Shown here: piece after piece, positions 16,754-40,048 of the stretch
Numbering within the stretch: the stretch's first letter is position 1
How the letters are laid out: each line of letters starts with the position of its first letter
Source of the DNA: a virus
Taxonomy: Duplodnaviria; Caudoviricetes
IMG/VR virus record: IMGVR_UViG_3300043773_000874
Span: 1-45,129 of that record
Direction: 5' to 3' (one strand)
Length of the DNA: 45,129 bases
Program-made: the position numbers and the translations under genes
The notes under the pieces: model-generated
Told to the model about the DNA's origin: nothing
Databases searched by the model: none
The model's input: the letters and a program-made list of their open reading frames with translations, nothing else

Positions 16754-16905
16754 AAGAGCGCGACCAACCCCGCAAGAAAAAGATCTACCGCAAGCCCGAA
16801 AACAAAACTTGCCCCTATTGCGGATCGGAAAAGATTGAACAAACAGTGATTCGGCATGTCGGAGTAATCAAGACATGCAAGAATTGCCGAGAACAAATCG
16901 ACTGA
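16750..16905 (+). CDS. 51-aa zinc-ribbon protein (not in the ORF track)
   Basis: ATGA overlap; CPYC...CKNC; basic N-terminus. Confidence 0.65.
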   Translation: MKERDQPRKKKIYRKPENKTCPYCGSEKIEQTVIRHVGVIKTCKNCREQID

Positions 16906-17167: not shown

Positions 17168-17409
17168 ACTACACACAATGGCCAATGGAACCCTATCCTT
17201 CACCCTTCCAGAAGAACAACAGGAGTTTGAAGATGCTTGCAAAGCAAGCGATTTTCGCTGTGTTCTTGGGCATTTTGATGACGAGCTTCGCTCTCATCTT
17301 AAGTATAATTCTCATCCCGATTGGGATGGGGCAACTATTGAAAAAGTTAGACAAGTTCTTTACAACTTGATTGCCGACTACGGCATCACCATCCACTAAC
17401 TACACACAA
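17167..17409 (+). repeat. 12-bp direct repeat AACTACACACAA flanking gene 17178..17399
   Basis: Identical copies at 17167-17178 and 17398-17409, each forming a translation-initiation region. Confidence 0.7.
17178..17399 (+). CDS. Conserved phage hypothetical protein
   Basis: L.F.LPEE..EF..A ... LR..LKY motif seen in many small phage proteins. Confidence 0.7.
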   Translation: MANGTLSFTLPEEQQEFEDACKASDFRCVLGHFDDELRSHLKYNSHPDWDGATIEKVRQVLYNLIADYGITIH

Positions 17410-17411
17410 CC

Positions 17412-18014
17412 ATGACTACAGTATATATCTGTGGCCCTATGAGGGGCTACCCAAAATTAAACCACCCTGCCTTTTTTGAAGCTGAAGAAGCCTTGCTCAA
17501 GGCGGGACATCAAGTAATCAATCCCGCAAGGATGGATCAGAATCTTGGGCTAGACCCCCACAACTCCCAAATGGACGGGAAGTTTATTGAGGAAGCCGCC
17601 AGACGGGATATTGATGCGATCTTTGAGTGCGACGAGCTTGTCCTCCTTCCCAAGTGGGAAAAGTCCAAGGGGGCGCGGGCCGAAGTCGCGGTAGCACAAT
17701 GGCTAGAAAAGCCCTTGCGTCTTTACCCTTCCATGGTTAAGTTGGAGAAAGAAGATGTGTGCGACATCGCCAAACGTCTTACTTCCTATGATCGTCAAAG
17801 CGACTACGGAAGCCCGATTGATGACTTCACCAAACAGGCTAAAATGTGGGGAGCCATCCTTGGAGTCAATGTGACCCCGCAACAAATCGCCATGTGTATG
17901 ATTGCGGTCAAACTTTCCAGACTCACCAACTCACCCCGTCATAAGGATAGCTGCGTAGACATCGTAGGCTATGCACGGTGTTTAGATCTCTGTAACCAAG
18001 CAACATCTCTATGA
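17412..18014 (+). CDS. DUF4406 (nucleoside deoxyribosyltransferase-like) fused to DUF6378-like domain
   Basis: VYICGPM.G, VINPA, CD..VLLP.WE.S.GAR.E; then R..DYG.P...F, KLSR, DS.VDI.GYA. Confidence 0.75.
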   Translation: MTTVYICGPMRGYPKLNHPAFFEAEEALLKAGHQVINPARMDQNLGLDPHNSQMDGKFIEEAARRDIDAIFECDELVLLPKWEKSKGARAEVAVAQWLEKPLRLYPSMVKLEKEDVCDIAKRLTSYDRQSDYGSPIDDFTKQAKMWGAILGVNVTPQQIAMCMIAVKLSRLTNSPRHKDSCVDIVGYARCLDLCNQATSL

Positions 18015-19591
18015 GCAAAAAAATAGCAGTCCTTTCGGACTTCCATTGCGGCCACAAGGTCGGACTAACCCCAAAGGGTTATCTACCTGAAGAGCCAGCA
18101 GACGAGCGGGCACGGTGGGTCCACGCCAACCAAGCCTACTACAACTGGTATAAAAAACACATCAACCTCCACGGTCCCTACGATGTCATCTTCCTTAATG
18201 GAGATCTCGTAGACGGCACAGGCAAGAAGTCAGGAGGCACCGAACAGATCACCACCGACATGGAAGAGCAGTGCGATATGGCGGTTAAGATTATCCGCGA
18301 AATCCCGAAATCTAAAAAATGCGATATAGTTATCACTAGGGGCTGTGTAACCGCTGGTCATCGTGTGATTACATCTGATTTGCGGTGGGTTCCAGTGGAA
18401 TGGCTAAAGGTTGGTGATACGCTTTTAGCATGCGATGAAAATCCTCATCCAGAGTCAAATCGTCGTTACTGGAAAGAGTCTGTTGTTCTTAAAAATGAAC
18501 CACAAGAAGCCGAAGTATTTAAGATTAGATTTAGTGATGGAACGTCTATTGAGGCGACTCACGATCATCCATTCCTATGTAATATGCGTGGATACTACGG
18601 AACAAAATGGGGAACCGTTGAGTTTCTTGAAAAACAATTAAAATCATCATCTGTTAAGGTTCCTCTTCAGAAGTTCCTGCCAACTTGGGCAGAAGATGCA
18701 TCATACGAAGCTGGATATATATCGGCATTTTTTGATGGAGAGGGATATTTCTCTCAACGCAGAAAACCCAGAAGGAATAAGTATATCGATGAATCCCATT
18801 GTGTTGTCGGAGCATATCAAAACGAAAACGAAGTGTTGTCTTATTCTAAGCAAATCCTTGAAGAGTCTGGTTTTGACTGCAAAATAAATTACAAAGATTC
18901 AAAACATAAATGCAAAATGCTGGCAATTCGCGGAGGACTTGGACAGACATTGCGTTTCTTGGGCACATTTAGGCCAAAGCGTCTTTTGCCAAAACTGGAT
19001 ATTTCCAAACTCGGATGCATTAAGGCTTGCGATTCGGTATTTATTGAATCCATTGAACGAATCGGAATCAAAACCATTTACGCCTTAACAACCACTAGCA
19101 AAACATATGTTGTTGAAGGTTTTGTAAGTCACAACACTCCCTACCACACAGGAGATTCGGAAGATTGGGAAAACATCATCGCAGAGCGTGTAGACGCCGC
19201 AATTGGAGAACATGAGTGGGTGGATGTAGAAGGGGTCGTATTTGACCTTAAACACCACCCAGCAGGCTCTAGCGGCATTCCCCATGGTCGCCACAGCGGA
19301 GTGGCTAGAGATCGCCTCTGGAACCTCATCTGGGCCGAAAAAGAACTACAGCCCAAGGGAGATGTATTTATCCGCTCCCATGTTCATTACCACAACTTTG
19401 CGGGAGGGCCAGACTGGCTGGCGATGACCACCCCAGCCCTACAGGGGTTTGGTAGCCGATTCGGAGCCAGACGCTGCACTGGCATTGTGGACTTCGGATT
19501 CGTCACTTTCACCGTCAACAAAGGAACATACACATGGCAACCCATCATAGCAAAACTGGAAGAGCAAAAAGCTCCAATGATAAAATTGTAG
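18011..19591 (+). CDS. Calcineurin-like metallophosphoesterase interrupted by an intein
   Basis: SDFH.G, NGDLVDG, KHH and SHVH metal motifs in the exteins. Confidence 0.85.
   Translation: MSKKIAVLSDFHCGHKVGLTPKGYLPEEPADERARWVHANQAYYNWYKKHINLHGPYDVIFLNGDLVDGTGKKSGGTEQITTDMEEQCDMAVKIIREIPKSKKCDIVITRGCVTAGHRVITSDLRWVPVEWLKVGDTLLACDENPHPESNRRYWKESVVLKNEPQEAEVFKIRFSDGTSIEATHDHPFLCNMRGYYGTKWGTVEFLEKQLKSSSVKVPLQKFLPTWAEDASYEAGYISAFFDGEGYFSQRRKPRRNKYIDESHCVVGAYQNENEVLSYSKQILEESGFDCKINYKDSKHKCKMLAIRGGLGQTLRFLGTFRPKRLLPKLDISKLGCIKACDSVFIESIERIGIKTIYALTTTSKTYVVEGFVSHNTPYHTGDSEDWENIIAERVDAAIGEHEWVDVEGVVFDLKHHPAGSSGIPHGRHSGVARDRLWNLIWAEKELQPKGDVFIRSHVHYHNFAGGPDWLAMTTPALQGFGSRFGARRCTGIVDFGFVTFTVNKGTYTWQPIIAKLEEQKAPMIKL
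18344..19135 (+). mobile_element. Intein (264 aa) with LAGLIDADG-type endonuclease region
   Basis: Starts CVTAGHRV..; LKVGD; block B T.DHPFL; YISAFFDGEG; ends TYVVEGFVSHN followed by Thr+1; AT-richer than flanks. Confidence 0.92.
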
Positions 19592-21082: not shown

Positions 21083-23854
21083 CTATGCAAATATTGAGGC
21101 ATTTAATACTTCCGCATAAATTCTGGCAAATCCATATTGATAAAGTTCTACGCGAGAATCGATAAGATATAATCCTCTTCTTGGAATATCTGATGGTGAT
21201 GTTGGGCCTAAATTCGTGGGCAATTGTCCACGAGAAAATGCGTCTCGTGAGACATTGGAAATACTCAAGGCTTCACCCCAATTAAAGGATATATCTGCGG
21301 CTCCTGTTTGGGAGTTTTGTCCACTGCTACCGATATTTATTTGTCTGTGTAAACACGGAGGTATCGTTGCTACCGAAGGTATATTTTGAACGCTGCCACC
21401 AAATCCAGATCCAGTAGATTTTGAAATAGCATAGGTTGTCGCTCCACCTTGACCAGAACCAGCACCTCCGTTAACCTCTCTTACTTTTGTGTAAGAATGA
21501 GATGCCGAAGCACTCACACGAACTGATTTTGCTTGGCCTTTTGCTACAAGTGTATGCGATTGTGGTTTAAAAACTGGCCATTGTTGAACGCCTCCGCCAA
21601 TCTTTGCCAGAATGTCTGCAAGTGTTACAGGATATTTCAAGAAAAAGATATAGCTCGTTGTTGGAATGTTGTTTGCGTAAACCTGCTCCATATCTATTTT
21701 AAAATCTGGTTTTACGCTTGAACTTGCAGATGCGCTTCCGCTTTCAGATATTGATCTTCCATCACTTCCAGCGATAATTGGGGCGCTTCCACTACTTGTA
21801 TATGATCCATCCTCTTTTGCGTCAGACCATACAACCGTCACTCCTTTTAAAACTGGTGGAAGTGACAGCGATGTTCTTGTCGGAAATTGCAGCATAATGG
21901 ACTCCAACTCTTGTTCGATTGCATCAAGATCAAATTCCCTAACAAGATCCAAGTCATCGGAAAGCGGATCGACAATTGTTGCGGCATTTCCAAGTTTTGA
22001 TCCAGAAGCAACGATACTTTCATCATAGGGGATAACCACATTAACATTAGGTTCGTATTCCTGTCCGCGAAGAGTTGGCAGGCTTCCATTGTCTCGCGAG
22101 GTGGTTGTTTTGCGGACGGTAAATTCAGTAACCCTCTGTTCGCTTTTTTCCAAGTCGTTGGCATCCAAGGCGGGCATGGACACCGAATCTTGAGCCACAG
22201 TCTCTTGGGTTGTTTCGGCGGGTGCGCTGGCGCGAAATTGTTCAGGAATAACATCGGGCTTGGACGCCGAAAGAGTCTTGGCATCAAAAACATTGGGAAC
22301 ACGAACTTCGGTTTTAATTGTTCTTTGATCACCCAAGGCTTCAATAGACCCATCAATCAAAAGGGCGTCTGGTTGGATAGATTGCGGATCAGCCGTCAGT
22401 CGAAGCGTTCTGGTGGCTATTTGACCCTGTGGGGTAATTACCGTTTCTGTCAATATTTCAGCCGCGCTGACATCTCTGGTGTTTGTTGAGACACGCTTAA
22501 CAAACTCTGTAACCTGTTCTTCCGATTTGGAAAATTCACCAGCACCAAGAGTTATGGCCGAAGGAGAGCTAATTACTCCTGCAATATTCTCTTCGATAAT
22601 TGTATCCGCTTGCGCGGCTCGGAATTTTTCGGGTGTAAGATCAAGCCTTGTCTTGCGGATGGTTTTACTGGTGAATACAGAAGGAACAGTAACCTCTGTC
22701 TTGACAGTTCGTCCATCCCCCAAAGCCTCTACGCTGGCATCAACGAGCGTAGCAGACGGAGTGAACGACTGATCCCCGACATCCAGCCGAAGCAGTCTTG
22801 TGCCGATTTGTCCTTGGGGAGTTAGGACTTTTTCCGAAAGCGTGACCGCCGAAGTGATGGAGCGTGATGTGGTGGCAACACGTTTGGTAAACTTATTAAC
22901 CTGCTCTTCAGATTTAACAAACTCTCCAGCGCCCAAAATAATATTAGGGTTAGCTGATCCCTCAACGGTTTGTTCAAAAACTGTGTCCTCTTGGGCGGCT
23001 TTGAACTTCTGGGGAGTGATATCTTCTCTTGTTTTGCGATAGGCTTCAGCCCCGAAAACTTGAGGAACTTCAACAACTCTCTCAACCAATGATTCGGCGT
23101 CTTCCCGCGAAACCTCTACGGTCCTTGTGGCTGTTGGATTCGGGGGAACATAATCGGCGGCTCCCTTGCGTTGAGTGGTGACGGTAGCTAGTTGGCGGGC
23201 CTCGTCGGTGGCTTTTCCAATAAGCAAGGGTCCATCTACCTTGTAGGTCTGGACAATCTTAACCGAAAGAAATTCGTTGTAGGGTTCGTAGGAGGTCTGG
23301 GTAATGACTCCGTTGACGTTCTCCAAAGTTCCCTGCTCCTCGCCAGTAGGAACAAAGAGTTGGCGGCGTTCTTGGACGGGGCCACGGGATGCATCGTAAA
23401 AATCCCGATTCCGAATAGGAAAAAGAGAATTTCCATCATCGTCAGTTTCAATCGACCAAGCTTCCTCAATCTCGGTATAGACAATTGCGGAGCCTTCGCG
23501 AGCTTCGTAGTTAACCCTCTGGTCGGGGCCAAGTCGGGCAACCTGACCCTCATTCTTAACTGAGCGTCTACGTCCTTGAATCGGGCCTAGATCGTCATCG
23601 TAGCGGGTGAAGGGCACCCAAGGGGCGGGCAGGATTTCGTAGATATGAGTGACCCGCTCGTCTCCGTTGGATGGCTGGGAACCCGTAAAGACATGGTTGG
23701 GATACCGCTTGGAATCTGGGTGCGGGCTTAGATCCTCTGGCACCCGATACCCCGCAACACGGGGATCTGCTCTCAGTCCAATCGTTGGAAAGTCTCTATC
23801 GTTCGCCGCATAAGAAATAACGTAGGAACGATTTAGGGGTGGTTGCTCTGCCAT
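21083..23854 (-). CDS. Large beta-rich structural (tail/baseplate-like) protein with internal tandem repeats
   Basis: 923 aa, Thr/Val/Glu-rich; about 2.5 repeats of ~128 aa. Confidence 0.65.
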   Translation of the reverse strand: MAEQPPLNRSYVISYAANDRDFPTIGLRADPRVAGYRVPEDLSPHPDSKRYPNHVFTGSQPSNGDERVTHIYEILPAPWVPFTRYDDDLGPIQGRRRSVKNEGQVARLGPDQRVNYEAREGSAIVYTEIEEAWSIETDDDGNSLFPIRNRDFYDASRGPVQERRQLFVPTGEEQGTLENVNGVITQTSYEPYNEFLSVKIVQTYKVDGPLLIGKATDEARQLATVTTQRKGAADYVPPNPTATRTVEVSREDAESLVERVVEVPQVFGAEAYRKTREDITPQKFKAAQEDTVFEQTVEGSANPNIILGAGEFVKSEEQVNKFTKRVATTSRSITSAVTLSEKVLTPQGQIGTRLLRLDVGDQSFTPSATLVDASVEALGDGRTVKTEVTVPSVFTSKTIRKTRLDLTPEKFRAAQADTIIEENIAGVISSPSAITLGAGEFSKSEEQVTEFVKRVSTNTRDVSAAEILTETVITPQGQIATRTLRLTADPQSIQPDALLIDGSIEALGDQRTIKTEVRVPNVFDAKTLSASKPDVIPEQFRASAPAETTQETVAQDSVSMPALDANDLEKSEQRVTEFTVRKTTTSRDNGSLPTLRGQEYEPNVNVVIPYDESIVASGSKLGNAATIVDPLSDDLDLVREFDLDAIEQELESIMLQFPTRTSLSLPPVLKGVTVVWSDAKEDGSYTSSGSAPIIAGSDGRSISESGSASASSSVKPDFKIDMEQVYANNIPTTSYIFFLKYPVTLADILAKIGGGVQQWPVFKPQSHTLVAKGQAKSVRVSASASHSYTKVREVNGGAGSGQGGATTYAISKSTGSGFGGSVQNIPSVATIPPCLHRQINIGSSGQNSQTGAADISFNWGEALSISNVSRDAFSRGQLPTNLGPTSPSDIPRRGLYLIDSRVELYQYGFARIYAEVLNASIFA
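22091..23068 (-). repeat. Tandem ~381-387-bp coding repeats
   Basis: VP.VF...D.TP.KF.A...SE.QV..F..R units starting at 23068, 22687 and 22300. Confidence 0.85.
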
Positions 23855-23861
23855 TTCGGAA

Positions 23862-23890
23862 AACTTACTCTAAAAAGAAGGTGGCGGCAA
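23862..23890 (-). promoter_or_regulatory. Promoter for a leaderless minus-strand operon
   Basis: TTGCCG-N17-TAAGTT; ATG (23854) 7 nt after the -10. Confidence 0.55.
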
Positions 23891-23903
23891 GATGATTTTC
23901 CGC

Positions 23904-23931
23904 TTGCATTGGTTAGCAAAAATGATAGGTT
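23904..23931 (+). promoter_or_regulatory. Promoter of candidate sRNA
   Basis: TTGCAT-N16-TAGGTT with TGn extension. Confidence 0.5.
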
Positions 23932-23937
23932 GCTCAC

Positions 23938-24011
23938 TTGGAAGGCATTCGTCTTCCTGTTTTCATGTGTGTGGGGCGGGGTCGGGCTAAAAACTCGGCC
24001 CCGCTTTTTTT
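23938..24011 (+). ncRNA. Candidate trans-acting small RNA (~75 nt)
   Basis: Own promoter; 5' hairpin GGAAGGC-attc-GTCTTCC; unpaired UGUUUUCAUGUGUGUGG; intrinsic terminator; no + strand ORF of credible length. Confidence 0.6.
23976..24011 (+). terminator. Rho-independent terminator
   Basis: GCGGGGTCGGG-ctaaaaa-CTCGGCCCCGC 11-bp stem followed by T7. Confidence 0.85.
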
Positions 24012-24017
24012 GAACGC

Positions 24018-24046
24018 TTGACAAGTTGGGTTGTCGGATCTATCTG
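24018..24046 (+). promoter_or_regulatory. Putative promoter
   Basis: Perfect TTGACA-N17-TATCTG; ATG at 24060. Confidence 0.45.
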
Positions 24047-24059
24047 AAACTCTACCTAT

Positions 24060-24683
24060 ATGGCATATCAATCCAATCAACCAAAAGCACCAGTCCTCTC
24101 ACATTTTACCTTGGCCAAAAACGGGCCAAAACTCGTATCCGTTAAATCTCCCCCCAAATGGGTCAAGCAAAATAGCCTATGCGTTATCGAATTAATCGTT
24201 GATGGTGTGGCCCATGTGTATTTCACTGAGAATAAGGACATTGCATCGAAGTTCCAGCAGTATGTGGGTAAATCTGTAGTGCTGATTGCCTCTGGCAACT
24301 CCAAGCAGAAGACTGATTCCATGGAGATCCAGCCTGCTGGGGTGCCCGCTTCAAGCCTGCCCGTGGCCCAGAGCGCCCCGCAATCGCCCCAGAAAGCCCC
24401 AGAAAGCGTTATTACGGCCCCAGTCCACAGGGACAAGGAGGCCAAGCAATTCCTCTGTCAGGCGGCAAATCTGATGCGGCTGTGCGTGAAGAAAGCCAAT
24501 GATATTGCGGTGGAGTTGAACCTTCCCGATCAGCATCGTCAGGGAATAGCAACGACGATGTTTATCCAAGCGGATAGACAGGGCTTCATTCAAGCCATGC
24601 CCATCACGGCATATACCCCCGAACAACTTGGATTCGGGGCAAGCAAGGCCGAATCCCTGAATAGTCCACAAGCGAATGACTGA
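24060..24683 (+). CDS. Hypothetical protein, possibly ssDNA-binding/recombination
   Basis: Beta-rich N-domain, Pro/Gln linker, helical C-domain; first gene of the nuclease operon; function is inference. Confidence 0.55.
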   Translation: MAYQSNQPKAPVLSHFTLAKNGPKLVSVKSPPKWVKQNSLCVIELIVDGVAHVYFTENKDIASKFQQYVGKSVVLIASGNSKQKTDSMEIQPAGVPASSLPVAQSAPQSPQKAPESVITAPVHRDKEAKQFLCQAANLMRLCVKKANDIAVELNLPDQHRQGIATTMFIQADRQGFIQAMPITAYTPEQLGFGASKAESLNSPQAND

Positions 24684-26370: not shown

Positions 26371-26594
26371 AACCTCATCCAGACGATAGTATCTTTAAAG
26401 TCAAAGACTTCATCAACGAACTCTCGCGGGTTCAAGATGCTTACTTTGAGTCCTTGTGCTTTGAGCTTGGATTAGGTGACGGAGATGAACTTAAAGATCA
26501 TCTGTTTGACTACGTTTACAACGAACAGAAGATGGTAACATTCGGAGAGCATCTGGATGAGCTTGGTCAAGGAGATCTCTGGGACGGGCTGTGA
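26367..26594 (+). CDS. Hypothetical acidic protein
   Basis: ATGA/GTGA overlaps on both sides. Confidence 0.65.
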   Translation: MKPHPDDSIFKVKDFINELSRVQDAYFESLCFELGLGDGDELKDHLFDYVYNEQKMVTFGEHLDELGQGDLWDGL

Positions 26595-27376
26595 CCCTCA
26601 ACATCTTTACTATTGTTCTTGATGGCTCTCCGTGGATCGGGGCGCAGTTTGCAGAACTATGCCGATTAAAAGATACTGACTGGCGTTGGTCGATTGTCGA
26701 GGGGGCGGCGATGCCTCAGAAGGACACGGCTTGGATGGGTAACCAGACAGGGAAAGTTTCCCACGATGGTACTCATCAATTCCTACAAGCCCTAGCGCAC
26801 CATCCCCGAATCACGGTTAATAGCAAATCGGAATGGGGTGGTAAGACAGAGATGATCAATGCGGCGTTAACTGCTTTCAAGAAAGACGGCGTCTTACTTC
26901 AAATGGATAGTGATGAGTTGTGGACAGCCCAGCAGATGAGTGATCTTATTCCTCTCTTTGATGGCAACCCCGAAATCAATACCTTAAAGATCAAGATGGA
27001 TTACATGCTTGGGCCTAATGTAAAATCAACATCCACAGACGGTTACGGAAACAGGAAAGACGAGTGGGTGCGGGCTTGGAGGTACAGCGTTGGACTCTGG
27101 ATGGAGCGCCATGAACCTCCCGTGTTCAATGGGAATAGAGGCAAGATTTGCGAACGAGACGAGGCGACAGCTATGCTAGGACCAGTCCTCCACATGGCAT
27201 GGGTGACCCCGCAACAAGTATCCCAGAAGCAACGCATATACAAAGGTGGATACGAAAATGCCTGTGAAGATTGGGATAGGCTACAGCGCAACATGAAATG
27301 GCCTGTCAAAGATCTTAAACAGTTTTTGCCTTGGGTTGGTAGCGGGGCTTCGGCTGATTTACTTTTTAAGCAATAA
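26591..27376 (+). CDS. GT-A fold glycosyltransferase (GT2-like)
   Basis: IVEGA, S.DGT..FL, LLQMDSDELW (DxD), VLHM. Confidence 0.75.
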   Translation: MTLNIFTIVLDGSPWIGAQFAELCRLKDTDWRWSIVEGAAMPQKDTAWMGNQTGKVSHDGTHQFLQALAHHPRITVNSKSEWGGKTEMINAALTAFKKDGVLLQMDSDELWTAQQMSDLIPLFDGNPEINTLKIKMDYMLGPNVKSTSTDGYGNRKDEWVRAWRYSVGLWMERHEPPVFNGNRGKICERDEATAMLGPVLHMAWVTPQQVSQKQRIYKGGYENACEDWDRLQRNMKWPVKDLKQFLPWVGSGASADLLFKQ

Positions 27377-29346: not shown

Positions 29347-30545
29347 TGGCTGAACCACTCACATCTTCTGATATTTGGAGAACCCAGCGTGGTTGGGGAG
29401 TTTCCCCCCTTGCCTCCGAGGAAGAGCGTAAACGCTTTGCTGCCGCTGGAGAAAGCCCGCTAACAACGCAAGCTCGCGAACGATTTGAGACTGGTCGCGG
29501 AATCTCCCCGATGGCTAGTCAGTCGGAGCGAGAGGCTTGGAAAGTTGCAGAGATTCAAGCGGGAACCAGATCTCCAATGGAATTGCCAGAATCTTATGGC
29601 GGGATGGGAGATCGTCCTAAAGCTACAACCCGCAGGGGATTTCGCATGCAACAGGAATGGGATAAACAGTATGAGATGATGCGGAAACAGGAAGAGGAAG
29701 CCCGTGAGGAAAATCGTTTCTTGATGAGCTATGAGTTGCAACGCCAACAAGAGGAGAGAATGAAGGGCGCACAAGATCTTCAAATCCAAGCTGGACTGGC
29801 AAAACAAAGCAGGCAGCAAGATGTTGAGAGGCAGGCCCAAGACATTATGAACAACATCGTCGGTTTCACCAGACCAGATGGCAGTAAGCAGAGTCCAATC
29901 AACGTCAACGATGAGGACGCTCCCGAAAGATTGCAGATGTTGATTGCCAACAATCGACGGGGAATGGAAAGTCAAGATGTCAAAGAGGTTGTGACCATGA
30001 TGCTTAATGATGCTCTTGATATCCGAGCAAAACGGGACGAAGAGATAATGTCCGACATCAAGGCAAAGGCTGGGCTGGCCAAGGATCTTAGCACTAACGG
30101 GTTGAGTATTGGAGAATTTACCAAGGACGGAAAGATTGATTATGTCGCGGCCTCCGATGCTCTTGGCAAAGCAATCGCAAAAGGAAGGGTTGAAGAAGAA
30201 GAGCGCAAGAGTTCTACTGCAATTGTCAATGATCTCCAAAAAGATGTGATCAAGATTCGTGGCGAGGTCGCCCGATACCAGAAGCTGCTTGAAGCCAGCC
30301 CCTCTAATCGAGAAGTTTCAAAACAGCTTCAAGGTGCCTTGGCTGATCAAGGTGTATTGGAAGACGAGATCAACAGACTGAGCCGTCCCCGCGAAGGAGG
30401 TGCCACAGAATCGGAGGGGCCAACTACAACAGAATCTCCCGCAAAAGAACTTAGTCAACAAGACCAAACTGCGCTAAACTGGGCCAATGCAAACCCAGAC
30501 GATCCTAGAGCAAAAAGAATTAAAGACAAACTTGGAGTTCAATAA
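29346..30545 (+). CDS. Putative internal virion (ejection) protein, coiled coil
   Basis: N-terminal G.SP repeats, long E/R/Q coiled coils, C-terminal QD..AL.WA.ANP.DPRA..IK.KLG motif. Confidence 0.6.
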   Translation: MAEPLTSSDIWRTQRGWGVSPLASEEERKRFAAAGESPLTTQARERFETGRGISPMASQSEREAWKVAEIQAGTRSPMELPESYGGMGDRPKATTRRGFRMQQEWDKQYEMMRKQEEEAREENRFLMSYELQRQQEERMKGAQDLQIQAGLAKQSRQQDVERQAQDIMNNIVGFTRPDGSKQSPINVNDEDAPERLQMLIANNRRGMESQDVKEVVTMMLNDALDIRAKRDEEIMSDIKAKAGLAKDLSTNGLSIGEFTKDGKIDYVAASDALGKAIAKGRVEEEERKSSTAIVNDLQKDVIKIRGEVARYQKLLEASPSNREVSKQLQGALADQGVLEDEINRLSRPREGGATESEGPTTTESPAKELSQQDQTALNWANANPDDPRAKRIKDKLGVQ

Positions 30546-33500
30546 TGGCCTTTGATCCAGATGAATATCTGAACGAGAAAGGCTCGCCATCTACCGCTAC
30601 AACGGAGTTTGACCCAGATGCCTATCTCAGTGAACCAGACTCAGAACAAGAACCTGAGTTTGATCCTGATGCTTATTTAGCAGAACCACCCCCAGTTGGC
30701 ACATCGCTTTTTGAGGAGATAACACAAATCCCGCAAGCCATCAAGCAGTCCATCGGACAGCCTTTGGAGGCCATGGGTGAGACCGCCGAAGTCTTGGGCG
30801 CTCCAGACCTTGGGGCAACGCTGCGAGGAGCCATTGAGGAACCCAAAGAATATGTCCCCGCTGCACAGAGATTCATGCAGCCACAAGAAGGAGAATTCCA
30901 GATTGGTGGGTTTGCTCCTCAATTCCTACCCCGCGCCATTGTTGAGCAAGCTGGTCAACTTGCTGGTGCTATCGGTATGCGGGCCGCTGGTGCTGCTGTT
31001 GGTGGTTTGACGGGATCTGTTGTCGGACCCAAAGGAACGGTGGCTGGTGCAGTCGCTGGATCTTTCCTTGGTCCAGCACTATTTGAAATGAGTCAGATTG
31101 TTGGTCCTGTGGCCCGTGAACGTGCCGCTAATCAGGGGCGAGAACAACCTAACGGTGACGATCTTGGTTGGGCGTGGGCTACGGCTGGTGCCAGTGGTGC
31201 GCTTAATGCTATCGGCGCGAGATACCTTCCCAATGGAGACAAGCTTGCTGGCGGGCTTGCCAAACGCATTTCTCAATCCTTCCTTGGTGAGGGTATCCCC
31301 GAAGGCGGTCAGGCCGCAGTTCAGCAGATCGGTGAAACATTCCTTACCGAGCAGGGGCTTGATCTTCGTCCGAAAGAAATTGCTGGTGAAGCCATTATTG
31401 GTGGTGGCGCTGGCGCTGCCGCAGTCGGTGTGGCCGAACCATTTACCAAGGCCAAGCAAGCTGCCGAGACTAAAGTGGTGGCAGAACAAGCCGCTCCCAT
31501 CGCGCCCGAAACTGCACAGGTGGTTAGCGAGCAGGCAAATCAAGTTATCAATGAGGCTCAAGTCGAGGAGACTGCCGAAACCCCCGAACAGCGAGTAACG
31601 CGCCTCCAAGAAGAAGCTACCGCAGCAGCAGGAATAGAACTAGAAGAAGAGGGGGAAGTCGGGGTCGAGCCGCCTGTTGCCATCACCCCGCCCGTAGCAC
31701 CCACTCCCGAAGGCGCAGTAGCCCCTGTAGAGCCAGTAGTTGAGCCAGTAGTAGCAGAGCCGCAGCCAGCCGCAGAAGTCGCGCCAGAGAGGCGGGATGA
31801 AGAATATACTTCTTCCGTCGAGGCGGGGAATACCGAAAGAGCGAAGCAACTGGTTGACGAGGCTTTTGTTGCGGCGTCCACCCCCGAAACAACTGATTCA
31901 GTTTTTGAGAGACACAAAGACTATAAGATGATGGGGCTTACTTTTGAGGAAATAGTCCAAAATCCCGAAGCACTAAGAGAAGAGGATCAAGACGATTACA
32001 ATACTGTGATGTATTGGGTGTCACAGATCCAGCAGGGCAACACGCCAACAGTGGTTGCTGATGACAATGGAATTCTTTGGGACGGATACCACCGACTTCT
32101 TGCAAGCAAGATAGCAAATGCCGAATCTGTAAACGTATTCAAATCAACCAAAGAACAAACGACTGATGAGGCTACTAAAGCCGTGGTTCGCGACAAAGAC
32201 GGGAACATTATTCCGCTCTCTCAAAGGTTCCCGCCAGCCGCCCCCGCAGTGACTCCTCCCGCCGAGGTGGCCCCCGAAGTTGCCCCGCCCCCGAATCTTG
32301 AACCTCTACGTCGAGTAGCAAGAGCAGAACAAACAGAAGAGGATGTTTCGGGGTTGGTCGGTCAAGGACTAGTCGAGCTATACAATGGGCAACCAGTGAT
32401 CACACAAGCGGGTCTAGAGGCGCTACCAGAGGCAGAACGCCCAAGGTTGAACCCCGAAGCCCGAAAGATCCAAATCGACACAGGATCAAACGAAGTAGTA
32501 GCCGAAGCCATCGCGAAGGGGCTTCGTATCGGGGTGGATCAGGTGGGAACAGGTGTGCGTATGCCCGCAGGCTGGACACTGGTAGAGGATATCTATGTTC
32601 CGCCGAAAAAGATGGAGAAGATTGACCTTTCTGATGTCGAGGCATTGGCAGAAGTAGACGAGAACTCTGACATATTTGCAGAAATTATCCGCAAGAAAGA
32701 TGAGGCGAAAGCGGCGGTGGTTCAAAAGCCAGAAGGATCTGCTTTTGCCAATCAGGAGGAATTCCGTGCGGCGTTTGATCTTCGCGGCGAGGGCCACGGA
32801 CGATTCGCCACAAGACTTGATCTGATGGTTGCTGATGGAGCCATTACCAGCGAGGGACAAGATCTAATAATGGCTGTTATCTTTGATAACAAAACAAATG
32901 ACGAGTTTTTGGCTAACATGGAGATGGGGTCTCTGCGTCCTCGTGTTTCCAGAGCATATGGTCGCGGTGGAGCTAGTCGGCAAACTGTTGAGACAATAAG
33001 AGGAAAGGCAATTGGTTATAAGCCATCATTGCGGATGATGCAAAATGCCAGAAAGGGTCTTCAAATAGACGAGCAAACAGCCGAAACCCTATCAACATTT
33101 TGGCATGAATTTGGCCACGCTGGATACTATTCGCTACTGGATAAGGCACAGAAAAGCAAGATCGCTTCTGTCTACAATAAAACAACTCAAACGCAGCGTA
33201 AAAAATTCTTTGAAAGCGGTGTTGCTGCTGCAAGACAAGCGGACTTCTATTCAAGATACTATGCCAAGAGCGAGTCAGAGTGGTTTGCTCAATCTTTTGC
33301 TGAATATGTTCTTACTAAAAAGTCAGAACAGAAGGCTTTAGTGCCAATATTTGAAAGCATCTTAAATAAAGTTAAAAATATATTTGGAAAACTGTTTTCA
33401 AGAAAGGAAGGGACGCCAGAGCTTGAAGACATTTTTGAATATATTATTCAGGGTAAAGACTATGGATCAACCAAGATTTGGTGGAACGGGATGCAAATGT

Positions 33501-36500
33501 CTTTATCTCCTGCAATCTATGGAGTTAGAGGGGCGCAACCTGTTGATCCTGCATTTAGTAGAAGGCTTGTTGAAAGAGAAAAACAGAACAGGGCCAAGGC
33601 TATGGGGCGCACCGCCCCCGAAGTAAGAGAATCCCGCAGGGAACCCACTCCCCTTACCCAACAAGACAGAGAGTATCTGGATGCGGTGGAAAGAGGAGAT
33701 TTGGATGCGGCGTCGAGGGCTGTAGAGCAAGCGGCTAAAAAGGCTGGATACACTATTAAGGCGTATCATGGAACAGATAAAAAATTTACCACATTTAAAA
33801 GTGAAGTTGGGGATGGTTTCTTTTTTGCCAACCGTCCAGTTAACAATCTTCCTCAAATTGTTTCATATTTGAAATTGTCAAATCCATTACGCATAAATGC
33901 AAACGGGGCACAATGGACTGATATTCAGTATGGTGACACAAAATATGATACAGGAGAACTTGCTGGAATCGCGATGGTTTCTGGATATGACGGGGTAATT
34001 ATTGAAAATGTTATTGAGGGCGGAGAAACATCTCCAGCAGATGTCACGATAGTTTTTAATCCTAATCAAATCAAGTCTGCCGCCCCCGTTACCCGCGATG
34101 ACCAAGGCAACGTCATCCCGCTTTCCCAACGCTTCCAGCCCACAGAAGAAGATATCAGGTATAAGAGGATTGAGATGCCGCGCCCTGCTGGCATGGAGAC
34201 CGAAGCAGTAGCAACAAAGCTGGAATCTTTGGGATTCGGGCGGGGTGGGATCGTGTCGGTGGTCAACGAGCCCGATGCTTCCTTTGAAGGCCGCACTATT
34301 ATCCGAGATGGGAAAGTAGTGGGCATAGAGCTAAACGCCGCAGCCCTGAAAGACGATGCTGCTGTAGAGCGAGTCCTTAACCATGAGATTGCCGAATCGG
34401 CCAATGCCGATGGAGCATTGAATACTTTGGTTGCTGGGTTGACCCCGAAAGAAAAAAAAGAAATCAACGATGCCATCACTAGGTTGGGCTACGCAGAGAA
34501 GGCTAGAACCGCCGAGGAAGCCGCCAGAGCCGTCGAGCTACTAGCCGAGGGATGGAGGGGAAGACGCTGGTTTGATCGCGCTGTAGCGCGTGTTGAGGCA
34601 TGGGCCAACAAGTTGGGCTACAAGCTTACCCGTCGAGCCGCTGAATACATTGCCGCCAGAAACATGGCGGAAGTAAATGAATCTTTCCGCAAGATGTCAA
34701 CCGCTGATGCTCTTGCAAATCTACGGGGCGCAAGGAAGGTCAACTTCAACGGACTCAGCGCCGTCTTGATTCCTCCGAGCGAGATGGAGTTTGCCTATTC
34801 TATCGCCGCCTACCATGGAACACCGCATGAAATCAAGGGAAGATTCCAGTTGGCAAAGATTGGAACTGGTGAAGGCGCAACTGTCTATGGATGGGGGCTT
34901 TACTTTGCCGAGAATATCGATGTCGCCCTTGAATACAAAAACAGACTAGCAAAAGAATTGAGATATGCTGGTTCTGAATTCGACAATAAAAACCCATCGC
35001 ATGTTGCGGCAGATAGGCTTGCTATGGGTAAATTTTATGGAAAGTCTCGCGAGGAAGTAATTCAAGAACTGGAAAATGATGTAGACTATTACGCAGATAA
35101 CGAAAACATACAAGCCCAGCAATGGAGCCAGCAGATAGTTCAAATTCTCAGATATAATAACGAAGCTAAAATAGAAAGGGTGGGGAATCTATACAGTGTT
35201 GATTTAGATGTTTCTGAAGATCAGTTGATGGATTGGGACAAGCCCCTGAGTGAACAAAATCCCGAAGTCCGTAAAAAGCTTGAGCCATTTCTTCCGCCAG
35301 CCTTACAGAATCCATTTGAGAAAAAAACTATACAAGAATTAATAGACGAAGATCCAACAATTCAATACGTCTACAGATATCTCGTAATGGAGGAAATGAA
35401 AAAGACCTCGTTTTTGGATATGTTCAGAGCATTATCCAAAGACGAAAGGGAATTCCGAGCAAAACAAAAAGTTTCCGAGGCGTTTAGGAGTGCTGGTATT
35501 ATTGGCATCCGATATCTTGATCAAGGAAGCAGATTCGCGCAGCCGAAAAAAACAGGATTCGGGTGGCTTGTGGATGACTATCGCGGATCAAACTATTTTA
35601 AAACCAAAGAAGAAGCAATTAAGTTTGCGGAAGAGGCTCAAACCAGAAACTACGTTATCTTTGATGAGGATGTGATCAGTATTACTGGGCGCAATGGCCA
35701 GCCTGTAGACATTCGCGAATCCCGCAGAGAAGACGCCATCCCCACCTTCTCCGAGGGAAGCCCCGAAGCATCTACTCTATCTACTATGGCAGCATCAATG
35801 GCCAAGGTGGATGCTGCGTCCGAGGCTAAAGGCCCGACCACCTACAAGATCAGCGAGATAGCCTCTGTTTGGATGGATCAAGGGGGAGATGCCCGCCAAC
35901 TCCAAGACATGGTAGTGGAGTATACCAACCTTACCCCAGCCAATGCCAAGAAGGTGGCCAATGCCATTGCCAAGCAATACGGATTGCAGCAGCAAATCGC
36001 GGAGACAGGTGCGGTGATTGCCGAGCCAGCCCCTGAAGTCGAGGGAGCGCCCCGCAAGACCAGTGTGCAGAGATTGATTGAGCAGGCTGTTCGGGTGCGG
36101 CGTCCTATCGTCAAGCTGGAGGTCAACGAGAAGACCGCGCTTAAAGACCAGATCCGCCTCAAGGCTCGCGAAGCCCGTGAGACCCGTAAAGCCCGCAAGG
36201 AAGCTGCAAGGGATCTGGCCGAAGCCGTGACTCAATACGTCAAGGACAACCAGATTCGCGGCCCCGTCCGCGCCCGCCAGACCATCTCCCTAGCCAAGCA
36301 AGCCTTGAAGCTGGATGTCAATAACGAGAAAGCCGTAGACCGCTACATCATGTATGTCGAGCGAGTGGTGGAGAATGCCAACTACGATAAAGATCTTTCG
36401 GACGCCAAGGCACTGCGTAAACGCGCCAAGGAGATGGCCAAGAAAAAGAATATCGGCCCCGAACAAAAGAAAGTCTTGGAGGCTATCGGAAATATCAATC

Positions 36501-39463
36501 CATCCTTGCTGGACAATCCCCACGAATACAATGTGTTGACTGAGAGGTATTTGCTTGGATTCCTTCCTGTCACCTCGCGCCGATACAGCGTCATGCCAGA
36601 TGCCGAAGCAAGGCAATACCTTGAGTCGCTAGAGGTGCAGATGACCCGCAACCAAGCTGAACTGGATCGCGCCGAGCTTGAGCGATTCTTTGAAGCACAA
36701 GCAGGATTTGCCGAGCAGCGCGGACTCTCTTTGGATGAAGCCCAGAATCTTCTCAACGAGGACGGGGATATCGCCACAATCATTCAAGACTATAACCTTG
36801 AGAAGCGTAAAGCCGCAGAGGAGATGCTGCTAAATCTGGCACAGAACGCGCAGAAGACGCTCAAGACCTACGATGATTCCGCAAACACGGCGCGGCAAAA
36901 GGAACTGATTTCATTCATGCAGAAGGTGAAGTTGGAAAGCATCACTTCTGACGAGAAGAAACGCTTTATCCGCTTTGCCAATAATATCTTGGCCAATGGA
37001 GAAACCTTCGGAGTTGAGCAGTTTGAGGCTGTGGCCAAAGCCCAAGAGAGACTAGTCGAGGCGGCGAAAGATAAGCGTTTGGCGCAAAAAATGAACGCAT
37101 GGATCGGGCCTTTGAGCGGCGGCTCGCCAGCAGAACTAGTTCAAAAACTTTCGCTTATCACGCAATCAGAGGTTGACACTCTCAAAAATATCTTTGGACG
37201 CGAGGCTGTTGGTGTCTTTCGCAGGGTTCTTGGATTGCTTGATCTGGATGTTGCTCAAACCGCATCTACTACAGCCAAAGAGAAAGTTGCAAACAAGGTC
37301 GGTGACTTTTACAAAAAACTCAAAAAGAAATACGGAGAAGAATCTGTTGGTCGGGAGTCCAACATCTTTACCACAGCAGCAGCCTATTTTATACAGGCGG
37401 AAGGGAACAAAACCCAAGAAGAGTCCATTGCTTATCGCCGCCGTCTTTGGACGGAGAACATCGAAGAACTCCGCAAAAGCGAGCGCAGGGAAGACCGAGA
37501 GGAAGCCGAAATAAAACAGCGGGCACTTGATTCTATTACTGGCAATAGCAACGCCGAGATATTGGATTCATTGAGATCAATCAATCCAGCAGCTTACGAG
37601 CAATTGATGTGGTGGAAGGATCAGATGCATCCTGAATACAAGCCTTTCCTCAAAGACCACGTTGAGAACTTCCGTAACCAAGCCAACAACTACGACAACG
37701 TCGATTACCTTTCGATTCACTACAAGTGGGATCAGTCGCCAGAGCTTCCTTCTGATCTTGAAATTCAAGAATTTGACGATCCTGTTTCGTTTAGAATCAA
37801 ACAAGCCGCAAATTCCGTAAAACGCAAAGACCATCCAAGCCTCCCCGTTAATCCAAAAACTAGGGTCAAAGCAAACATCGATGTCAACTTTGGCTATAAT
37901 CAATATAACGCGCTTACCGAACAAATAGAAAAGGCATACACTGCTCCAGCTTGGGAAGCCGTATCCGCATTTGTGCGAGATCCGCTTTTTGAACAGGTTG
38001 TTGGAGGAAAAACAAATGCTGATTTTGTTAAAAACATATTGCGGAACATCAAAGCAACGCGCACCCGCAAGGCTATGCTTGATGATGAAAATCAGATCAT
38101 CGGTGGAACCGTTGCTCTCACCAGAAGGATCTCAACACAAGCAACGCTAGGTGGATTTACTCAGCCCCTTAGACAGGTTCCCGACCAGTTGTTCAAGCTA
38201 TTCGCTACAACAGGAAGGTGGGATCTTATTTCTAGAAATATAGTTGATTCATTGTTGAATTACTCTTCTGTGAGGAACAATCCCCTTCTCAATAAATTGC
38301 CTATCGGTCGCCGTGGAGATGCTAGGGCTGGATCTCAGTTTGCTGCCGAGTTCAACGAACTTGCCCGAAAAGTTGAGGCATCTGTGACCAACAAGCAATG
38401 GACAAGATACAAGGAACTTATGACCCAAATGGGAGAGTTCTGGATGACGCCTCTTCGCGGGTCAGATACTTGGATCGCCAAAGTTTCTTGGATGAGCTAC
38501 TACGAAGCCGAGCTAAACAAACGGGATATCAAAATGGAAAGCTGGGAGCGGGAGGCCGAACTATTTGAAATCGACCCCGCTAGACAGGAAGCGGCGGCAC
38601 AGGCCGAATATCTGGTGGACTTCTATGCTGGAGCCAGTGATCCGACCAAGATGGCAGCACTATCCAAACAAGGAAACAATGGATGGCGTGAGTTTTCCAA
38701 GCTTATCTTTTTGTCCCTTAACTCGTTCGCACTACAACAAAAGTCTGCACTTATGTCTGACTTTCGCGATCTTATTCTTCGTTCTGGTAGCAGACAAGCC
38801 GCTCTTGCTGGAATAACTGGAGCAATTGGCGGCATGGTTGCCTTCCACGGTATGAGGATCTTTATTATTGGCGGTCTTCTCTATCCAGCAGCTATGATGG
38901 TTCTCAAGGGAATCTTCGGAATCGACATGGATGAACCCGACGAAGAAGAGCAGGAGAAACAACTCAAAGACAACTGGCGCAAGATGAAAGCCTCAATCTA
39001 CTCAAACATTGTGGCTGGTGGCGCGGGGCAGTTCCTTGAGGGCAAGTCAATCGACGCATTCAATAGAACCATGTATCTCTGGGACGCCCACATCAACCCC
39101 GATGAGATGATGGATGATAAGGGAGAGTTTATATCTTTCAGCAAATACGAGAAAGAAAAGTCTCCGTTCTACCGATTCCGCAGCTACGACAAATCCGAAT
39201 TCACTTTTGGTTTGGCGGATGTTTTGACCGAGCAAGCGCAGAGAAGCGTTGATCAAACGGCGCAGCTTCTCAGTGATGAAGAAATGAGCGTGTATACTGG
39301 CAATGAACAAGCCTATGCCTTATTTGCTACTGGCGTCGAGTGGGCTTACTTCTTCAGACTAATGGACACCGATCTCAAGCGTATAACGACTAAGCTGAAG
39401 AACGATATCGACAAGCAAGCCAAGGAGCGCGAGGCAGAACTCCGCGCCATCCGAAATCGTTAA
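30545..39463 (+). CDS. Giant (2972 aa) polyvalent virion/ejection protein: ParB-like, zincin metallopeptidase and two ADP-ribosyltransferase-like domains
   Basis: FDPD.YL x3; Gly/Ala hydrophobic segments; DGYHR (32081); HEFGH (33104) with downstream EWFAQ; AYHGT..GFFF..GYDG..QIKS (33761); AYHGT..GEG..YGWGLYF..NYVIFD (34808). Confidence 0.85.
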   Translation: MAFDPDEYLNEKGSPSTATTEFDPDAYLSEPDSEQEPEFDPDAYLAEPPPVGTSLFEEITQIPQAIKQSIGQPLEAMGETAEVLGAPDLGATLRGAIEEPKEYVPAAQRFMQPQEGEFQIGGFAPQFLPRAIVEQAGQLAGAIGMRAAGAAVGGLTGSVVGPKGTVAGAVAGSFLGPALFEMSQIVGPVARERAANQGREQPNGDDLGWAWATAGASGALNAIGARYLPNGDKLAGGLAKRISQSFLGEGIPEGGQAAVQQIGETFLTEQGLDLRPKEIAGEAIIGGGAGAAAVGVAEPFTKAKQAAETKVVAEQAAPIAPETAQVVSEQANQVINEAQVEETAETPEQRVTRLQEEATAAAGIELEEEGEVGVEPPVAITPPVAPTPEGAVAPVEPVVEPVVAEPQPAAEVAPERRDEEYTSSVEAGNTERAKQLVDEAFVAASTPETTDSVFERHKDYKMMGLTFEEIVQNPEALREEDQDDYNTVMYWVSQIQQGNTPTVVADDNGILWDGYHRLLASKIANAESVNVFKSTKEQTTDEATKAVVRDKDGNIIPLSQRFPPAAPAVTPPAEVAPEVAPPPNLEPLRRVARAEQTEEDVSGLVGQGLVELYNGQPVITQAGLEALPEAERPRLNPEARKIQIDTGSNEVVAEAIAKGLRIGVDQVGTGVRMPAGWTLVEDIYVPPKKMEKIDLSDVEALAEVDENSDIFAEIIRKKDEAKAAVVQKPEGSAFANQEEFRAAFDLRGEGHGRFATRLDLMVADGAITSEGQDLIMAVIFDNKTNDEFLANMEMGSLRPRVSRAYGRGGASRQTVETIRGKAIGYKPSLRMMQNARKGLQIDEQTAETLSTFWHEFGHAGYYSLLDKAQKSKIASVYNKTTQTQRKKFFESGVAAARQADFYSRYYAKSESEWFAQSFAEYVLTKKSEQKALVPIFESILNKVKNIFGKLFSRKEGTPELEDIFEYIIQGKDYGSTKIWWNGMQMSLSPAIYGVRGAQPVDPAFSRRLVEREKQNRAKAMGRTAPEVRESRREPTPLTQQDREYLDAVERGDLDAASRAVEQAAKKAGYTIKAYHGTDKKFTTFKSEVGDGFFFANRPVNNLPQIVSYLKLSNPLRINANGAQWTDIQYGDTKYDTGELAGIAMVSGYDGVIIENVIEGGETSPADVTIVFNPNQIKSAAPVTRDDQGNVIPLSQRFQPTEEDIRYKRIEMPRPAGMETEAVATKLESLGFGRGGIVSVVNEPDASFEGRTIIRDGKVVGIELNAAALKDDAAVERVLNHEIAESANADGALNTLVAGLTPKEKKEINDAITRLGYAEKARTAEEAARAVELLAEGWRGRRWFDRAVARVEAWANKLGYKLTRRAAEYIAARNMAEVNESFRKMSTADALANLRGARKVNFNGLSAVLIPPSEMEFAYSIAAYHGTPHEIKGRFQLAKIGTGEGATVYGWGLYFAENIDVALEYKNRLAKELRYAGSEFDNKNPSHVAADRLAMGKFYGKSREEVIQELENDVDYYADNENIQAQQWSQQIVQILRYNNEAKIERVGNLYSVDLDVSEDQLMDWDKPLSEQNPEVRKKLEPFLPPALQNPFEKKTIQELIDEDPTIQYVYRYLVMEEMKKTSFLDMFRALSKDEREFRAKQKVSEAFRSAGIIGIRYLDQGSRFAQPKKTGFGWLVDDYRGSNYFKTKEEAIKFAEEAQTRNYVIFDEDVISITGRNGQPVDIRESRREDAIPTFSEGSPEASTLSTMAASMAKVDAASEAKGPTTYKISEIASVWMDQGGDARQLQDMVVEYTNLTPANAKKVANAIAKQYGLQQQIAETGAVIAEPAPEVEGAPRKTSVQRLIEQAVRVRRPIVKLEVNEKTALKDQIRLKAREARETRKARKEAARDLAEAVTQYVKDNQIRGPVRARQTISLAKQALKLDVNNEKAVDRYIMYVERVVENANYDKDLSDAKALRKRAKEMAKKKNIGPEQKKVLEAIGNINPSLLDNPHEYNVLTERYLLGFLPVTSRRYSVMPDAEARQYLESLEVQMTRNQAELDRAELERFFEAQAGFAEQRGLSLDEAQNLLNEDGDIATIIQDYNLEKRKAAEEMLLNLAQNAQKTLKTYDDSANTARQKELISFMQKVKLESITSDEKKRFIRFANNILANGETFGVEQFEAVAKAQERLVEAAKDKRLAQKMNAWIGPLSGGSPAELVQKLSLITQSEVDTLKNIFGREAVGVFRRVLGLLDLDVAQTASTTAKEKVANKVGDFYKKLKKKYGEESVGRESNIFTTAAAYFIQAEGNKTQEESIAYRRRLWTENIEELRKSERREDREEAEIKQRALDSITGNSNAEILDSLRSINPAAYEQLMWWKDQMHPEYKPFLKDHVENFRNQANNYDNVDYLSIHYKWDQSPELPSDLEIQEFDDPVSFRIKQAANSVKRKDHPSLPVNPKTRVKANIDVNFGYNQYNALTEQIEKAYTAPAWEAVSAFVRDPLFEQVVGGKTNADFVKNILRNIKATRTRKAMLDDENQIIGGTVALTRRISTQATLGGFTQPLRQVPDQLFKLFATTGRWDLISRNIVDSLLNYSSVRNNPLLNKLPIGRRGDARAGSQFAAEFNELARKVEASVTNKQWTRYKELMTQMGEFWMTPLRGSDTWIAKVSWMSYYEAELNKRDIKMESWEREAELFEIDPARQEAAAQAEYLVDFYAGASDPTKMAALSKQGNNGWREFSKLIFLSLNSFALQQKSALMSDFRDLILRSGSRQAALAGITGAIGGMVAFHGMRIFIIGGLLYPAAMMVLKGIFGIDMDEPDEEEQEKQLKDNWRKMKASIYSNIVAGGAGQFLEGKSIDAFNRTMYLWDAHINPDEMMDDKGEFISFSKYEKEKSPFYRFRSYDKSEFTFGLADVLTEQAQRSVDQTAQLLSDEEMSVYTGNEQAYALFATGVEWAYFFRLMDTDLKRITTKLKNDIDKQAKEREAELRAIRNR

Positions 39464-39469
39464 TGAGAA

Positions 39470-40048
39470 ATGAACGGGAGAATCGTAGTATCCCATCATT
39501 CTTCTTTAGATTTCTTGGATCTTTCGGGCGACCTTTGGGTCTACAATAAATCTGGAAAGCCAGTAAACAGAGTTACTGATATTCCGATAGCCAATGATGG
39601 GCGCGAAGGATCAGTATACATCCTCCACATTCTAGAGAACTATGACAATCTAGCAGATAAAACCATCTTCATTCAGGATGATTTGCATAATCACCAGCCA
39701 TCGATTGATAAATTTATTGAACATGCCGAACAAGATGTCGACTTCTACCAATTCCCATGCACTTGGAGGAAAGACAACCCGACATTTCACAAAAGGGAAA
39801 TCGTCAATGGATTCATTGATCTTCCAACCATCCGAAACAAAGAGGCTATTGTGGATTTCTGCTGGAGATTTAATTTGACCCTTCCATACCGCTACGAGAC
39901 CGAAACTTGCTGCTTTTTCATGGCATCAAGAGATGTATTGCGGTCTGTGACTAAAGAGAAATACAAGCTTATTGCTTCTTGGTTGCGGGAAAATCCCGAC
40001 AACGAATTTGTCTTTGAGCATTGCCACAAGCTATTATTCATCAAATGA
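39470..40048 (+). CDS. DUF3431-like putative glycan-modifying enzyme
   Basis: N.GRE..VY..HI.ENYD.LAD.TIF.Q; VFEH near the C-terminus. Confidence 0.75.
   Translation: MNGRIVVSHHSSLDFLDLSGDLWVYNKSGKPVNRVTDIPIANDGREGSVYILHILENYDNLADKTIFIQDDLHNHQPSIDKFIEHAEQDVDFYQFPCTWRKDNPTFHKREIVNGFIDLPTIRNKEAIVDFCWRFNLTLPYRYETETCCFFMASRDVLRSVTKEKYKLIASWLRENPDNEFVFEHCHKLLFIK

Follow-up and report, generated by a model that had tools for sequence, protein, structure and literature searches.

A conserved, predicted small RNA of a Caudoviricetes phage with an unpaired core complementary to CA-rich gene starts

Early-gene turn-off in phages is known mainly from T4 proteins that read Shine-Dalgarno (SD) or AU-rich start regions. 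Among RNA regulators, GcvB of enterobacteria acts in an Hfq-dependent manner. GcvB is a chromosomal host regulator of amino-acid genes, a single small RNA (sRNA) that silences many mRNAs via ACA-containing translation enhancers near the start and pairs upstream of the SD sequence (PMC3879156). Phages P1 and P7 encode C4, an antisense RNA of about 77 nt that acts in trans by occluding ribosome-binding regions and provides superinfection immunity; it is cut by RNase P from a longer transcript, has three stem-loops with two pairing loops (a' and b') and acts in the setting of lysogeny, within a temperate-phage immunity operon that includes an antirepressor (PMC5320573). In T4, the GGAG-cutting RNase RegB and the repressor RegA shut off early mRNAs via a motif in the initiation region, and RegA sites include the AUG (PMC3014915). 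StxS is an RNA of about 74 nt that derives from a promoter-terminator pair before an operon as a processed by-product of antitermination, binds Hfq and acts in trans (PMC7547250). The terms 'start codon' and 'multiple targets' are absent from the main text of a review of phage sRNAs (PMC12197685).

Here, we describe a real and conserved unit of about 75 nt that is probably a so far undescribed phage sRNA gene, with a well-defined candidate regulon outside the analysed DNA. As far as sequence conservation goes, it has the features of a trans-acting sRNA, namely its own promoter and intrinsic terminator and no coding frame. No description of the element was found in listings from a mainly open-access literature collection.

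Anatomy and setting of the unit

The window, by which we mean the whole stretch of 45,129 nucleotides that was analysed, is IMGVR_UViG_3300043773_000874, positions 1-45,129, a linear, 62%-complete record of Caudoviricetes that encodes tail, lysis and primase genes according to Pfam and PHROGs profile searches. The unit is placed between a 923-aa gene on the minus strand (start 23854) and a 207-aa gene on the plus strand (start 24060; cf. Table 1). Every element that an earlier note on this DNA had described, i.e. promoter, 5' hairpin, unpaired core, stem and U7, was found at its coordinates, and the RNA is predicted to fold as described there, into two hairpins round an open core (-33.7 kcal/mol, z -4.35, equalled by 1/200 shuffles). 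Forcing the 3' arm of the terminator open would cost about 20 kcal/mol, and no RNA antiterminator fold was found at the locus. The claim that no plus-strand gene lies upstream for the terminator to serve was confirmed as well: the 923-aa neighbour is on the minus strand, and no plus-strand gene ends at the terminator of the unit. The promoter was not listed by a consensus promoter scan, so that the support for it is comparative. Promoter, core and terminator are conserved, a micro-ORF on the opposite strand is not (see below), and the notion of a stand-alone non-coding unit is supported.

Table 1. Features at and around the predicted sRNA gene (positions in the window)
Feature	Position	Strand	Basis or remark
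Predicted sigma-70-type promoter	23904..23931	+	At this locus in 65/70 loci
-35 box TTGCAT	23904-23909	+	Sequence
-10 box TAGGTT	23926-23931	+	16-nt spacer before it, ending TGA (extended TG)
Predicted small RNA, about 75 nt	23937..24011	+	Start inferred from -10; fold; 45 distinct homologues
5' hairpin, 7 bp	23940..23957	+	Stem differs in type B; some divergent members have a weak hairpin or none
Unpaired core, likely seed: U-run, CAU (23964-23966), GU-run	23958..23974	+	Complementary to CA-rich AUG-AAA-AC starts
Intrinsic-terminator-like 11-bp stem and T7	23976..24011	+	Stem 23976-24004, T7 24005-24011
Second promoter-like motif TTGAAC-N16-TGTC	24010..24037	+	Predicted driver of downstream operon
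Divergent promoter-like element of 923-aa gene and GCAAG..CTTGC inverted repeat over -35 box	23867..23907	.	Function inferred
923-aa gene, function unassigned	21083..23854	-	No Pfam, PHROG or usable Atlas match
207-aa gene, weakly OB-fold/SSB-like	24060..24683	+	Foldseek best E 0.017 (no match < 0.001); many OB-fold rows
Possible secondary target, CA-rich start of DUF4406/DUF6378 gene	17395..17420	+	Mean relative rank 0.14, 9 genomes

A TTGAAC motif follows the stem at a distance of 2-21 nt in 62/63 loci, and since a promoter-like copy stands behind the terminator, the downstream operon would probably need no read-through. Eight loci have a copy of the motif within the RNA promoter. In its general form, TTGAAC-N16-(T/G)GTC, the motif occurs in 8-10 copies per near-complete genome (G001-G005, G008, G011) with a peak at a spacer of 16. 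This hints at a sigma factor or activator specific to the phage, although a scan of proteins identified no sigma factor. Another copy lies at 16835-16862 of the window. An ORF-opening ATG is found 6-9 nt past the -10 hexamer at 46/110 distinct TTGAAC sites vs 2.2% at random, from which we infer that the middle mRNAs made from these promoters are often leaderless. Many phage mRNAs thus appear to be leaderless, as the earlier note had proposed, and this applies to the TTGAAC class. On the other side of the unit, the divergent element of the 923-aa gene keeps a spacing of 36-37 nt to the RNA promoter in 59/63 loci, and together with the short inverted repeat between the two it is possibly a shared operator.

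Neither an integrase nor an antirepressor was found among the 46 window proteins or among 48/64 shared proteins of the relatives, most proteins being without a family, and annotated phages gave no match to the locus or to the putative capsid protein. The named cellular primases nearest to the phage primase are those of Verrucomicrobiota (32-39% identity), a weak hint at a host in this group; a primase scan of genome contigs returned only generic primases of other phyla (27-39% identity), and in a quick primase tree the phage clade falls outside every cellular group. Some Verrucomicrobia are reported to be SD-scarce (PMC10783764). In a host-like sample of 6 probable and 6 possible Verrucomicrobiota loci, taken from 1/64 parts of a metagenome set, SD-like words were present at 2/49 and 0/23 starts, respectively (2/72 together), vs 194/486 in other loci; the likely host group is SD-poor. 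Elsewhere in the window, a 526-aa gene (18011-19591) has sub-threshold intein and LAGLIDADG matches and a form of about 260 aa in relatives, a 2972-aa protein (30545-39463) carries an ART-PolyVal ADP-ribosyltransferase domain at residues 1067-1180, and a cluster of glycosyltransferase-, methyltransferase- and DUF3431-like genes occupies 26591-27376 and 39470-42388.

Conservation among related phages

With each flanking protein as a query, 66-69 viral loci were recovered, and the 69 loci from this search plus the window gave 70 loci for comparison. Promoter, core and terminator are present together in 65 of them, 63 by the strict pattern and another 2 in which the spacer is 17 nt long; two of the five loci without the unit lack upstream DNA, and the other three are distant relatives that gave no match to the pattern. 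A scan with the promoter-plus-core pattern gave 110 loci, all terminator-bearing ones being this same locus, and what alignment-based searches contributed beyond that was limited to three distant loci with no pattern-detected unit. The search pattern fixed the -35 box and part of the -10 box, and these columns are conserved by construction; among the promoter columns left free, the extended TG is kept in 91-96% and the fifth -10 base in 93%, vs 35-63% for most spacer columns.

The loci encode 45 distinct RNAs of 63-91 nt, each with a predicted terminator of 12-17 bp that is built from one of several unlike stem sequences. CAU is retained in 41/45 RNAs and missing in four, UUUUCAUGUGU is retained in 28/45, and the GU-run, which is part of the search pattern, is present in all 45, its length shifting in 2-nt steps. 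The core has a median unpaired probability of 0.83, with at least 0.7 in 32/45 RNAs. The U-tract is degraded in some members of what we call type B, and 6/45 RNAs have 3-5 T in 11 nt. Type A comprises 29 sequences and type B 7; the two are unlike in both stems, yet their 12-nt core is 94% identical, vs 42% for the spacer, 28% for the 18 nt 5' of the core and 59% for the terminator arm; the earlier note had named a seed less conserved than its flanks as a finding that would speak against it, and the opposite was found. Among 20 type-A sequences, the stems show 16 one-sided changes and 1 two-sided change with all pairs preserved, and for the 5' hairpin 12 one-sided changes were counted, the pair being kept every time. 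Covariation counts from the cross-type alignment were left out, because that alignment misaligns the stems.

We speak of types, not clades, because members of A and B are intermixed in a tree built from the N-terminal part of the 923-aa protein (L448-L512), which suggests recombination beside the unit. HNH endonuclease-like inserts, noticed by eye in the sequences, occur upstream of the unit in L011, L018, L056 and L057 and downstream of it in L035/G024 and L055/G008, so that they flank the unit on either side and leave it intact. In two further units (L484 and L493), a tandem pair of UUCAUGU elements is present and a strong 5' hairpin is missing.

Expression was looked up in three sequencing runs, as assembled contigs only and with small word shares. 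One metatranscriptome held 9 contigs with 99%+ identity to an 18-kb stretch of the relative G007, and one of the 9, with 311 nt and a depth of 4.7, bridges the whole locus. These contigs place the phage in the library and are not proof of a small RNA, DNA being a possible source; a discrete transcript of the unit was not seen among them.

Gene starts complementary to the core

Twenty-four relative records were used for the analysis of targets, and because their genes were called with a simple ORF script, the gene starts are noisy. Eleven relatives hold a block of small, variable genes beside the primase, with DUF932 and GP88 genes, which from gene content and position are probably early genes; some of them lie behind TTGAAC motifs, and sigma-70-like matches are not clearly concentrated in the block (11 vs 47). 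The block was delimited after a first target ranking had been seen. In a k-mer ranking that ignores the RNA, made for nine of the eleven relatives, ATGAAAA was rank 1 of 16,384 7-mers enriched on the block sense strand, and ATGAAAAC and CATGAAAA were rank 2 and 3 of 65,536 8-mers. All three complement the core, ATGAAAAC exactly, whereas same-sense k-mers of the RNA reached best block ranks of only 109 and 395. Forty-one distinct ATGAAAAC sites fall in the block, which makes up 7.6% of the strand length, vs 21 in the other 92.4%; 40/41 of them open a frame of at least 40 aa, and the block sites open 35 different MKT N-termini. With CAC directly upstream, ATGAAAAC occurs 14 times in the block and 0 times outside. 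Counted per gene, with only ORFs common to at least 3 genomes considered outside the block, it stands at the start of 27/174 block genes vs 5/425 elsewhere, which becomes 20/137 vs 1/187 for small genes and 18/83 vs 4/91 by family. This enrichment supports the complementarity to CA-rich, SD-less AUG-AAA starts that the earlier note had seen in the core. A further strongly enriched block 9-mer is GGTGACAAG, with 15 vs 4 contexts in 6 genomes (G001, G002, G007, G008 and others).

The predicted duplexes between core and starts are modest (-10 to -20 kcal/mol, opening costs excluded), and the commonest block leader ends in ACC-AUG, which gives one bulge or mismatch with the type A core. Three versions of a test that compares starts of block genes with those of structural genes pointed in the same direction: in hand-made lists, from which clusters with automatic starts that looked wrong had been left out, the AUC was 0.86 (13 vs 19 clusters, 3/100 shuffles); in position-based lists it was 0.65 with homologue-chosen starts (16 vs 24, p 0.06, 8/100 shuffles) and 0.83 with the best of three ATGs (21 vs 26, 0/100 shuffles), and in this last test the type B core gave 0.74 (1/100 shuffles). 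The AUC of 0.83 agrees with the proposal that structural-gene starts pair weakly with the core.

Several results limit the specificity of the match. When the genes of the phages are taken together, starts and internal ATGs are not told apart by the core (AUC 0.49), and with a value of 0.53 for host-like loci a universal anti-start activity was rejected. The best-cluster energies were matched by 20-35/150 shuffles of the type A core and 34-150/150 of type B, and a PWM of all starts showed no tuning by base order (shuffle p 0.13-0.98 over eight cores). Co-variation between seed and target at block starts had a p of 0.056 (7 genomes), and the p-values overstate independence because the genomes are related. 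The cores of G005 and G008 have no U-run, yet their blocks hold 2 and 5 ATGAAAAC sites. Since these two genomes keep MKT starts without the U-run and the cognate p is borderline, the motif may be a plain, efficient initiation signal that the RNA exploits and not a co-evolved tag.

Three starts in the window had been named as targets in the earlier note; the pairings exist as described there, but are at chance level, as 23 non-self window sites pair with the core over at least 11 uninterrupted pairs and about 200 over at least 9. Among 1443 ATG windows, the start at 19534 ranks 3rd, that at 17412 14th, and that at 17178 is outside the top 25. The site at 19527-19537 is inside the coding sequence of an overlapping upstream gene, and the HTH label of its gene was not confirmed by Pfam or PHROGs, while at 17169-17181 the CACACA is gone in most relatives among the matches listed. 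The third site, 17400-17408 at the DUF4406 gene, has a leader that is CA-rich in all 34 distinct pairs listed, but its co-variation with the core is not significant (p 0.32, 12 pairs). No gene family of the block is present in the window, where ATGAAAAC occurs once, as the complement of the RNA; because the best-matching starts lie in a block absent from this incomplete record, the likely targets are missing from the window.

The exact 17-nt complement of the core has 47 viral matches, of which 32 are the RNA gene itself; 10 of the remaining 15 (5/9 independent cases) are the first ATG of an ORF of at least 80 aa, vs a baseline of 5.6% of ATGs in five relatives. None of the five viruses with exact complements carries a relative of the putative capsid protein (0/5), and three are about 25% complete. 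A reversed-pattern control gave 4 matches. In L613, L618 and L638, ArdC-like anti-restriction genes start with the exact core complement (around 701-717).

Proposed action, alternatives and known systems

The unit has conserved promoter- and terminator-like ends and a mostly unpaired core, in which GUUUUCAU is exactly complementary to the block start motif. With moderate confidence, we propose that it gives rise to a trans-acting RNA of about 75 nt, which would mask CA-rich AUG-AAA-AC starts and damp the block; leaderless middle mRNAs would be spared. Host RNA polymerase would transcribe the RNA from the onset of infection, and as it accumulates, three parts of its core would pair: CAU with the AUG, the U-run with the codons for Lys and Thr, and the GU-run, often with one bulge, with the CA-rich leader upstream. 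A duplex over the start would keep ribosomes out and lower translation of the block. The middle mRNAs from TTGAAC promoters, often leaderless and free of the motif, would escape, and overall, translation would switch from early to middle genes. Early genes of a related co-infecting phage could be struck in the same way. A broader version of this proposal is more tentative, and we think it rather less than even in probability: the phage, probably virulent and with an SD-poor host, would use one RNA as an anti-initiation code against CA-rich starts of its own early block, of competing phages' early genes and of matching host genes, and would direct ribosomes to leaderless middle mRNAs. The RNA would then correspond to the proteins RegA/RegB of T4, and the strategy might recur among phages whose hosts are SD-less bacteria.

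Pairing of this kind might instead serve other ends, with host mRNAs or the early genes of other phages as the real targets and the match to the phage's own block as a side effect of a shared optimal start signal. This is unlikely, though it would account for a constant core alongside variable targets in the phage itself and for exact complements at genuine gene starts of other viruses (ArdC-like in three cases), and it would suit an SD-poor host group; against it, in the small host-like sample the core had no preference for starts over internal ATGs (p 0.24 and 0.31), AAA was the second codon in only 5/72 host-like starts, and the block of the phage itself has the motif at a far higher density. 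If the RNA were instead a decoy, a U/GU-rich single strand that binds a host or phage protein (e.g. ribosomal protein S1 or an RNase) and not mRNAs, one would understand why the pattern-fixed GU-run is common to all 45 RNAs and changes in 2-nt steps, why four RNAs do without CAU, and why target co-variation gave p-values of 0.32 and 0.056. The conserved 8-mer, the exact complement of a top-ranked block start motif, would be left unexplained, and we regard a decoy as improbable.

We give equally little chance to the idea that the short transcript arises as a by-product, from a promoter and terminator that insulate the downstream operon or are antiterminated into it, as in lambdoid PR'-tR'. The terminator does stand directly before an operon, some type-B U-tracts are degraded, and one RNA-library contig spans the locus; yet a separate promoter-like motif for the operon follows the terminator, there is no RNA antiterminator fold, and a by-product would not retain a 12-nt core while its stems get replaced. 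The least credible alternative, which the earlier note had itself named as a refutation, is that the element is just where translation of a minus-strand micro-ORF begins (MKTGRRMPSK, 23966-23934). It has a good minus-strand start context and its MKT recurs in most relatives, but the U-tract and promoter are oriented along the plus strand, the peptide is found in only 3/46 distinct sequences, lengths range from 3 to >30 residues, the frame shifts within the hairpin loop, and 4/46 have no ATG.

If a silencer of block starts is indeed what the unit encodes, one phage RNA would read a start-codon motif common to many unrelated genes in phages of an SD-poor host group, and leaderless phage mRNAs would be linked to escape from an RNA silencer. 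Reporter tests could draw on a seed and a motif that are both well delimited, and on variants found in nature.

Like C4, it would be a short phage RNA predicted to occlude initiation regions in trans; unlike C4, it has its own promoter and terminator, two hairpins round one linear core and many motif-sharing candidate targets, and no gathering-level Rfam match was found in the window, the two far-sub-threshold matches at the locus both being to families other than GcvB. It differs from StxS in that no antiterminator fold was detected and a promoter-like motif of its own precedes the downstream operon. RegB and RegA of T4 are proteins and the predicted agent here is an RNA, so that it would be an analogue in function only. 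With GcvB it shares a G/U-rich seed directed against C/A-rich elements of many targets, the pairing being predicted here, whereas the present unit of about 75 nt lies between two phage genes and has a core centred on the start and first codons of SD-less starts. By analogy, it is a unit that would work like GcvB and, having no Rfam match, is not a member of that family.
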